From Escherichia coli (GTDB taxonomy: Bacteria; Pseudomonadota; Gammaproteobacteria; Enterobacterales; Enterobacteriaceae), in assembly GCF_003790525.1 (NCBI RefSeq), contig NZ_CP033635.1: a stretch of 64,000 nt of DNA. One strand, written 5' to 3'. Of this stretch, positions 62,947-63,214 are shown piece by piece. The notes below the pieces were generated by a model. That model saw only the letters and a program-made list of their open reading frames with translations. It was not told the origin of the DNA and searched no databases. Made by a program: the position numbers and the translations under genes. Each line of letters starts with the position of its first letter. Within the stretch, counting starts at the first letter, position 1.

Positions 62947-62981
62947 TTGGGTGGTCTGTGCTTTACAGCACTTTCAAATTT

Positions 62982-63057
62982 TGGAGCGGGAAACGAGACT
63001 CGAACTCGCGACCCCGACCTTGGCAAGGTCGTGCTCTACCAACTGAGCTATTCCCGC
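62982..63057 (-). tRNA. tRNA-Gly (anticodon GCC), middle copy
   Basis: Identical 76-nt tRNA-Gly(GCC) sequence. Confidence 0.95.
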
Positions 63058-63214
63058 TTAATCTTCGTCTTTCGAACTGCTACTACCTTGGCTGCCTTCA
63101 CTCACCTTAGTCACTTACTTTTGTAAGCTCCCAAGGATTCGTTCAGTTGCCGCCTTGTCGCAATTCGAAATACTGCGATTGGGTGGTCTGTGCTTTGCAG
63201 CACTTTTCAAATTT

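Follow-up and report, generated by a model that had tools for sequence, protein, structure and literature searches.

The tRNA-Gly(GCC) operon of Escherichia coli that corresponds to glyVXY of strain K-12 was analysed in a stretch of 64,000 nucleotides (nt) from contig NZ_CP033635.1 (RefSeq assembly GCF_003790525.1), referred to here as the window. The operon is read on the minus strand, and its first spacer is much longer than its second. The extra segment in the first spacer is, with very high confidence, a copy of ERIC (short for "enterobacterial repetitive intergenic consensus"; also called IRU or RU-1), an imperfect palindrome resembling a MITE (a transposable element of the miniature inverted-repeat type). 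The features of the locus, in the order of transcription, are listed below.

63348..63375, minus strand: probable operon promoter, recognised by eye (-35 TTGCAG at 63375-63370, 16-nt spacer, -10 TATAAT at 63353-63348)
63215..63290, minus strand: first tRNA-Gly(GCC), glyV equivalent (ARAGORN; Rfam RF00005, 69.1 bits; same as K-12 glyV by alignment)
63058..63214, minus strand: spacer 1, long type, 157 nt, between the glyV and glyX equivalents
63181..63214, minus strand: native 5′ part of spacer 1, identical to the K-12 glyV-glyX spacer, including an extra A specific to spacer 1
63058..63180, minus strand: full-length ERIC/IRU repeat (consensus alignment, nhmmer, fold, dispersed relatives, clean indel against K-12)
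62982..63057, minus strand: second tRNA-Gly(GCC), glyX equivalent (ARAGORN; Rfam, 69.1 bits; K-12 alignment)
62947..62981, minus strand: spacer 2, short type without ERIC, 35 nt, one base unlike K-12 spacer 2
62871..62946, minus strand: third tRNA-Gly(GCC), glyY equivalent (ARAGORN; Rfam, 69.1 bits; K-12 alignment)

An earlier examination of this DNA without database searches (the sequence-only reading) had noticed the asymmetry of the two spacers, 35 nt against 157 nt, and the gene ends called by ARAGORN bear it out. Its statement that both spacers of K-12 are short was also right, as the glyVXY spacers of MG1655 measure 36 and 35 nt. A segment of ~34 nt common to the two spacers is real; it had been placed at their end, but with the operon on the minus strand both transcribed spacers begin with it, on the 5′ side. 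This common segment is the trailer of the upstream tRNA and reads AAAUUUGAAA(A)GUGCUG.AAAGCACAGACCACCC on the transcribed strand. The native part of spacer 1 opens with the AU-rich trailer AAAUUUGAAAA right after CCA, followed by a small hairpin and then by ACCACCC.

Alignment of the window with K-12 revealed one clean block of 121 nt that is present in the window only. It occupies 63060-63180 or, equally, 63058-63178 on account of a 2-nt AA ambiguity, and is bounded by ...ACCACCC and AAGCGGG. The extra sequence, put at about 123 nt before, is indeed a discrete block; the figure of 123 includes the two ambiguous bases. Elsewhere in the operon, three single-base differences lie in the promoter region and one in spacer 2, and the tRNAs and the trailer are identical. 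The promoter at 63348..63375 is a probable one, judged from its sequence; in the alignment, K-12 has exactly this sequence upstream of glyV. A promoter, PglyV-X-Y, is drawn upstream of the operon in PMC10380432. A consensus promoter scan left 63348..63375 uncalled, its -35 element matching at only 3 of 6 positions. No promoter- or terminator-like sites were found inside the extra segment, and the only terminator-like sites belong to orn. No credible open reading frame (ORF) was found in the segment, as the sequence-only reading had held; the 11 short ORFs that overlap the region are all mechanical, crossing tRNA genes or the spacer and ERIC. The RefSeq annotation leaves the segment unlabelled in every record examined.

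The identity of the segment was established by comparison with the 127-nt E. coli ERIC consensus of Wilson & Sharp 2006, as reprinted in PMC2759123 Table 1a. The two sequences align without gaps over consensus positions 4-126, with 91 of 123 positions identical (74%). The alignment score of 59 compares with 2.3 ± 1.4 for 500 shuffled sequences (maximum 10), and an nhmmer search with the single ERIC consensus gave E = 8.8e-17 (262-kb search). A three-way alignment was made of the segment with the E. coli and Salmonella ERIC consensus sequences. The transcribed strand of the block holds GAAUCCUUGGGAGCUUACAAAAGUAAGUGACUAAGGUGAG, like the ERIC core, and the conserved core is present in the segment as AAGGCGGCAA..GAAUCC..GGAGCUUAC..AAGUAAGUGACU..GGUGAG..GCAGCCAA. 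Relative to transcription, the element has the same orientation as the Wilson & Sharp consensus. A blastn search with the 123-nt segment located relatives, 60-80% identical to it, in 5,424 of the 5,426 complete genomes of E. coli, the median number of places being 8 per genome; the best of them in a K-12-like strain lies in the puuR-puuC intergenic region. No further ERIC copies were found within the 64-kb window, where the element is single-copy. With ERIC/IRU/RU-1 as described (Sharples & Lloyd 1990; Hulton et al. 1991; Wilson & Sharp 2006) the segment thus has in common some 123 of 127 nt in gapless alignment and the core, an imperfectly palindromic fold, dispersed copies, an intergenic location within a probable transcription unit, and polymorphism for presence and absence among strains. 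It is a new member of a known family, unusually old and constrained, and not a new kind of element.

A remnant of a fourth tRNA copy had been among the earlier suggestions for the extra sequence. Tandem arrays do grow and shrink, four Gly genes are present in Mixta theicola, and in size the segment roughly suits a tRNA-Gly, or another tRNA, that decayed within the array. This origin is refuted for practical purposes: neither ARAGORN nor Rfam (E <= 1) gives a tRNA signal in 63058-63180, the colinearity with ERIC extends over the whole length, and the predicted fold is one long hairpin where a tRNA would give a cloverleaf. An Rfam 15 scan of 62600-63500 at E <= 1 matched no family in the segment, and only the three tRNAs reached threshold. 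A sub-threshold match to YrlA (Y RNA-like) was seen outside the ERIC at 62894-63032 on the minus strand (40.3 bits, against a gathering threshold of 69). It runs from within one tRNA gene across the short spacer into the next, and is almost certainly an artefact, caused by the tRNA-like domain that the YrlA model contains.

The occurrence of the element between tRNA-Gly genes outside E. coli was studied by an exact-pattern scan of one genome per GTDB species, in which a tRNA-Gly 3′ end was followed by 82-112 nt, TAAGTGAC, 38-68 nt and a tRNA-Gly 5′ start. The element was found in at least 20 species of about 14 genera. The carriers include several Escherichia species (E. whittamii among them), four Citrobacter species, Enterobacter asburiae, Klebsiella oxytoca, K. 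spallanzanii, Kluyvera, Leclercia, Yokenella, Trabulsiella, Pluralibacter, Silvania, an uncultured Enterobacteriaceae genome and Mixta theicola. At all these loci the array lies downstream of orn, with queG on the other side wherever the locus reaches so far. All long spacers (141-158 nt) carry the element in one orientation, ending ...GAAGAUUA(A/U) directly before the tRNA. In this respect, the Gly-spacer copy is unlike the usual ERIC, whose locations are described as differing between species: it is orthologous at one locus in about 14 genera, lies in the spacer of a tRNA operon and abuts a tRNA 5′ end.

The position occupied within the array varies. The element is in spacer 1 in Escherichia and some others, and in spacer 2 in other species. 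Both spacers are filled in Citrobacter youngae ATCC 29220 (L005, 11074-11613); in a second C. youngae strain (L007) only spacer 2 is. Mixta theicola (L017, 9511-10256), with its four tRNA-Gly genes, has an ERIC in all three spacers. The element has evidently been copied along with the tRNA repeat unit. In Escherichia sp. ESNIH1 (L008) and Enterobacteriaceae UBA7338 (L021), spacer 1 holds a 77-nt relic in which both ERIC arms are preserved and ~75 nt of the centre are gone. Since spacer 2 next to it carries a complete copy, the element was once present in both spacers of these two genomes. Such shifts of position, together with relics, are the pattern expected of unequal exchange or gene conversion in a tandem array. 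Among 25 spacers the conserved core varies in length only once: in the long Gly spacer of Klebsiella spallanzanii (L019), 9 nt (AAGTGACTA) are duplicated in tandem in the hairpin's apical part.

Gly-spacer copies from different genera are 81-96% identical to one another and 65-79% identical to ERICs from other sites, those of their own genomes included. A profile built from the Gly-spacer copies scored those same copies at 99-138 bits and the non-Gly copies at 36-77 bits. The Gly-spacer copies therefore form a sub-lineage of their own within ERIC. Identity of the element to the E. coli copy in other genera was 80-93% (mean 87.1%). In the same comparison, the four-fold degenerate sites of orn gave 46-66% (mean 55.0%), and flanking intergenic DNA was 58-70% identical in most comparisons. 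The element's rate of evolution is about as low as that of the coding sequence of orn next to it. Its identity tracks the divergence of orn (Spearman 0.89 overall, 0.79 without Escherichia). Conservation per column was 64% in the adjoining native spacer, 87% at unpaired and 90% at paired ERIC positions. Vertical descent under purifying selection can explain this contrast between the ERIC and the native spacer.

Two other sources of the likeness between genera were considered and rejected. Horizontal transfer does not agree with the adjoining native spacer being only 64% conserved, nor with an ERIC identity that follows the divergence of orn. Homogenisation by other ERIC copies was set aside because the Gly-specific departures from the generic consensus are common to the genera.

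Within E. coli, the asymmetry singled out by the sequence-only reading is not universal: the full 601-nt arrangement was found in 1,618 of 5,426 complete genomes (~30%). The 123-nt segment is at least 95% identical in ~1,605 records, where it occurs as at least three alleles of 100%, 98.4% and 96.7% identity to the window. The allele of the window is in the minority, with 26 records, SMS-3-5 among them. K-12, UTI89 and one O157:H7 strain have in common a precise 36-nt spacer 1 that keeps the extra A specific to this spacer. HS30-1 has a filled and K-12 an empty spacer on flanks that are 99.8% identical, and close haplotypes can thus differ by the clean presence or absence of the element. The flanks of the window differ from those of K-12 by 2.1-2.5%, and its ERIC differs by 3.3% from that of HS30-1. 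The ERIC has thus diverged together with its flanks, and it has been resident since the E. coli lineages split. The 157-nt spacer is most likely the ancestral state in Escherichia, and the precise empty site of the ~70% of E. coli without the element (K-12, UTI89 and O157:H7 included) is probably derived. There is good reason to believe that the copy is ancient and that the short spacer of K-12 is a deletion. In another complete E. coli genome, OHT76-1 (NZ_CP135244.1), the 601-nt query matched in one place only, at glyW in glyW-cysT-leuZ; this strain may be without a glyVXY array, or the array may have collapsed in the assembly.

These results bear on the suggestion that the extra segment is an insertion scar. 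As a statement on ultimate origin it holds, since the segment is a MITE-like repeat; as a recent or strain-specific event it does not, given the orthologues in about 14 genera. A MITE that had recently entered the glyV-glyX spacer of this strain's lineage, until then short, would agree with the clean indel against K-12, where the 2-nt AA can be read as a target duplication. Presence/absence polymorphisms of ERIC among E. coli strains are also documented, according to PMC10969869, which cites Wilson & Sharp 2006. Such an event is nevertheless highly improbable. The same element occupies the same site of the syntenic array in 20 species, and other Escherichia species hold it in spacer 1. An identity of 65-79% to other ERICs leaves no plausible recent donor, and the E. 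coli alleles are up to 3.3% apart, in step with their flanks.

Folding of the 157-nt spacer gave -50.7 kcal/mol (z = -4.84), and none of 200 shuffled sequences was as stable. The fold is mostly one long imperfect hairpin of ~120 nt, which remains unchanged when the whole 441-nt precursor is folded. The base of this hairpin is followed by 2 nt and then by the 5′ end of the second tRNA-Gly (62982..63057). RNAalifold on 25 distinct spacers returned the long hairpin, with 29 ERIC pairs in the consensus structure, and a small native hairpin; compensatory double changes were seen in 9 of 32 pairs. Neither the observed number of covarying pairs nor the covariation score was reached by any of 500 shuffles. 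In the 25-sequence alignment 98% of cells are paired, against 27-38% in register-shifted controls.

The pairing is specific to the transcribed strand. There are 131 G.U cells against 3 A.C, 98% of cells are paired in the sense and 80.5% in the antisense direction, and the mean folding energies are -40.6 and -25.6 kcal/mol, respectively. The element is in the orientation that folds well relative to transcription, and this orientation has been retained.

The small hairpin of the native spacer has its stem at 63199-63203 with 63190-63194. It reads GUGCU/AGCAC in E. coli and GUAUC/GAUAC in many other genera. Three inner pairs of the five in the stem were counted, and each has undergone compensatory change among the genera. 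This hairpin is a conserved structural feature of the tRNA trailer in short and long Gly spacers alike, independent of the ERIC.

The strand specificity also bears on a role of the palindrome at the level of DNA, as a protein-binding or cruciform site that would affect datA or recombination of the array. The interval that separates the third tRNA-Gly from queG (62600-62870) corresponds to datA, a locus that promotes DnaA-ATP hydrolysis and is placed downstream of glyVXY in PMC10380432. datA depends on local transcription and supercoiling and is directly downstream of the operon (PMC10380432), and the species-dependent position of the element implies recombination around it. Selection at the DNA level would not be expected to produce pairing confined to one strand, and no ERIC DNA-binding motif is given in the review table of PMC2229807. 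We regard such a role as extremely improbable. Two of the three TTWTNCACA matches (DnaA boxes) of the whole 64-kb window fall within 62600-62870, at 62777-62785 and 62615-62623, both on the minus strand.

The reading favoured here is that the segment is an ancient, constrained, co-transcribed and self-folding ERIC spacer module that is removed by tRNA processing. We give it a probability of roughly 0.65, a figure in which the identity and the history of the element weigh most. According to this reading, an ERIC would have entered the locus formed by orn, the Gly array and queG before the genera of Enterobacteriaceae diverged, and would have been inherited vertically since. Recombination among the tandem tRNA repeats presumably moved it between spacers, and many lineages, ~70% of E. 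coli included, would have lost it cleanly.

The fate of the element in the transcript can be proposed from the K-12 operon. RNase E cuts the K-12 glyVXY precursor by direct entry, for which single-stranded spacer segments and an adjacent structured unit are needed (PMC3985628, PMC4191395, PMC9841416). The element is probably transcribed, as suggested by the K-12 operon (PMC3985628) and by the lack of an internal terminator or promoter. It would be part of the tricistronic tRNA precursor and would fold autonomously into a hairpin of roughly -40 kcal/mol. RNase E would then cut the single-stranded, AU-rich trailer that follows the CCA of the upstream tRNA, and RNase P would cut where the next tRNA begins (5′), 2 nt away from the base of the hairpin. 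Exonucleases would trim the ends, the spacer would be discarded, and the three mature tRNAs would be unchanged. The best account of the purifying selection is the place of the element in a very highly transcribed precursor, where variants that misfold or disturb the RNases would be costly and clean removal would be tolerated. Strong constraint where the element is present, together with its frequent clean loss, suggests a module that is harmful when mutant and dispensable when absent. Whether it acts as a constrained but dispensable spacer module in cis, rather than as a trans-acting RNA, is in our estimate evenly balanced.

Several observations weigh against this reading or weaken its support. 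The TA termini and the TA target duplication given for ERIC in PMC2229807 Table 1, and present in the usual copies, are absent from the Gly-spacer copy. Its ends have diverged to AAUC...GAUU with a terminal inverted repeat of only 4 bp. In E. coli the element is flanked by AA...AA, in Citrobacter youngae and Mixta by AA...AT. There is likewise no TA in the empty site, CCCAA|GCGGG, and the ambiguous AA is the sole candidate for a duplication. The missing termini and duplication fit an old copy with decayed ends. Loss is held to be more likely than re-acquisition by recombination from the divergence of the alleles and from the outgroups. The scan across species required exact matches, so that the count of 20 species is a lower bound. 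The asymmetry of G.U pairs is a property of the whole family, the ERIC consensus being likewise asymmetric (-61.8 against -45.2 kcal/mol), and does not by itself prove local selection. Co-transcription, the cleavage sites and the fate of the spacer are proposed by analogy with K-12, the operon of which is without an ERIC. Finally, unpaired positions are conserved almost as well as paired ones (87% and 90%), which a pure folding constraint does not explain and which points to sequence-specific recognition.

The last point is best accommodated by a domesticated ERIC, that is, a functional RNA kept for use. In cis, it would be a structured unit by which RNase E, RNase III or RNase P sets the order or the efficiency of tandem tRNA maturation; in trans, a stable spacer RNA of ~120-150 nt would act as a sponge or as a protein-binding RNA. 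The earlier suggestion of a small RNA or a processing element is kept alive in this form by purifying selection and by the covariation of the sense-strand hairpin. The element is conserved much as protein-coding genes are (87%; four-fold sites of orn, 55%), unpaired positions are as strongly conserved as the stems, and Gly-specific features have been kept across genera without homogenisation towards the generic consensus. The orientation and the place directly before a tRNA 5′ end are invariant in 25 of 25 spacers, and the element has been duplicated into two spacers (C. youngae) or three (Mixta). In the glyVXY precursor RNase E recognises structured units beside single-stranded spacers (PMC9841416), and a hairpin of -40 to -50 kcal/mol should, from its predicted stability, resist 3′ exonucleases. 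These arguments are countered by the clean absence of the element from ~70% of E. coli, successful lineages included, and from most species representatives in the exact-pattern scan; the nearly identical flanks of K-12 and HS30-1 argue that its absence has a low selective cost. No Rfam family matches it, and high sequence conservation has long been noted for the ERIC family in general. We found no paper reporting an ERIC in glyVXY or in any tRNA-Gly spacer, with the strain-specific loci of Wilson & Sharp 2006 outside this check. On balance a domesticated ERIC is unlikely, though it deserves serious consideration. More doubtful is the specific version in which the module has been kept in the orn-Gly-queG array for well over 100 million years by sequence-specific recognition, either in the precursor or as a hairpin RNA of ~120-150 nt. 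RNase E, RNase III, an RNA chaperone or some ERIC-binding factor might be what recognises it.

The favoured reading, a co-transcribed spacer module removed by processing, can be compared with known systems. The ERICs of Yersinia (De Gregorio et al. 2005, as reviewed in PMC2229807, PMC3184786 and PMC10969869) are described there as co-transcribed and as forming an orientation-dependent RNA hairpin that affects decay of the transcript via an RNase E site in its 3′ inverted repeat. The glyVXY precursor is likewise an RNase E substrate. In the mechanism outlined for Yersinia in those reviews, ribosomes unmask the site at the 3′ end of a translated mRNA, whereas the Gly-spacer ERIC is untranslated and flanked by tRNAs. 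The Correia/NEMIS elements of Neisseria (PMC10969869) are also co-transcribed MITEs of similar size, with long hairpins cut by a ribonuclease (RNase III). They belong to an unrelated sequence family in an unrelated host, and for the Gly-spacer ERIC cleavage by RNase III is a possibility only.

The tRNA operon glyW-cysT-leuZ reportedly gives rise to a regulatory RNA, 3′ETS-leuZ, a finding said to be that of Lalaouna et al. in 2015. Both 3′ETS-leuZ and the Gly-spacer ERIC are non-tRNA segments of a polycistronic tRNA precursor; both are released by processing, which for the ERIC is a prediction, and both are conserved beyond what would be expected of a discarded by-product. Unlike 3′ETS-leuZ, the Gly-spacer element derives from a repeat family and most strains lack it; stability, Hfq binding and targets would be hypothetical in its case.

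ERIC is a common target for fingerprinting (ERIC-PCR), and the reason for its sequence conservation is a long-standing puzzle, the question of its function dating from 1990-91. The Gly-spacer copy is unusual in lying inside a highly expressed tRNA operon, and its orthology across many genera makes selection on this ERIC measurable. On the practical side, annotation pipelines give the segment no label. The K-12-centred view of the operon is corrected, in that the short spacer between glyV and glyX known from textbooks is probably derived, by deletion. The clean presence and absence of the element on the nearly identical haplotypes of K-12 and HS30-1 constitute a tractable natural experiment on the ERIC hairpin and RNA processing. 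If the ERIC has indeed been domesticated, these natural near-isogenic alleles would serve to test what ERIC RNA does.

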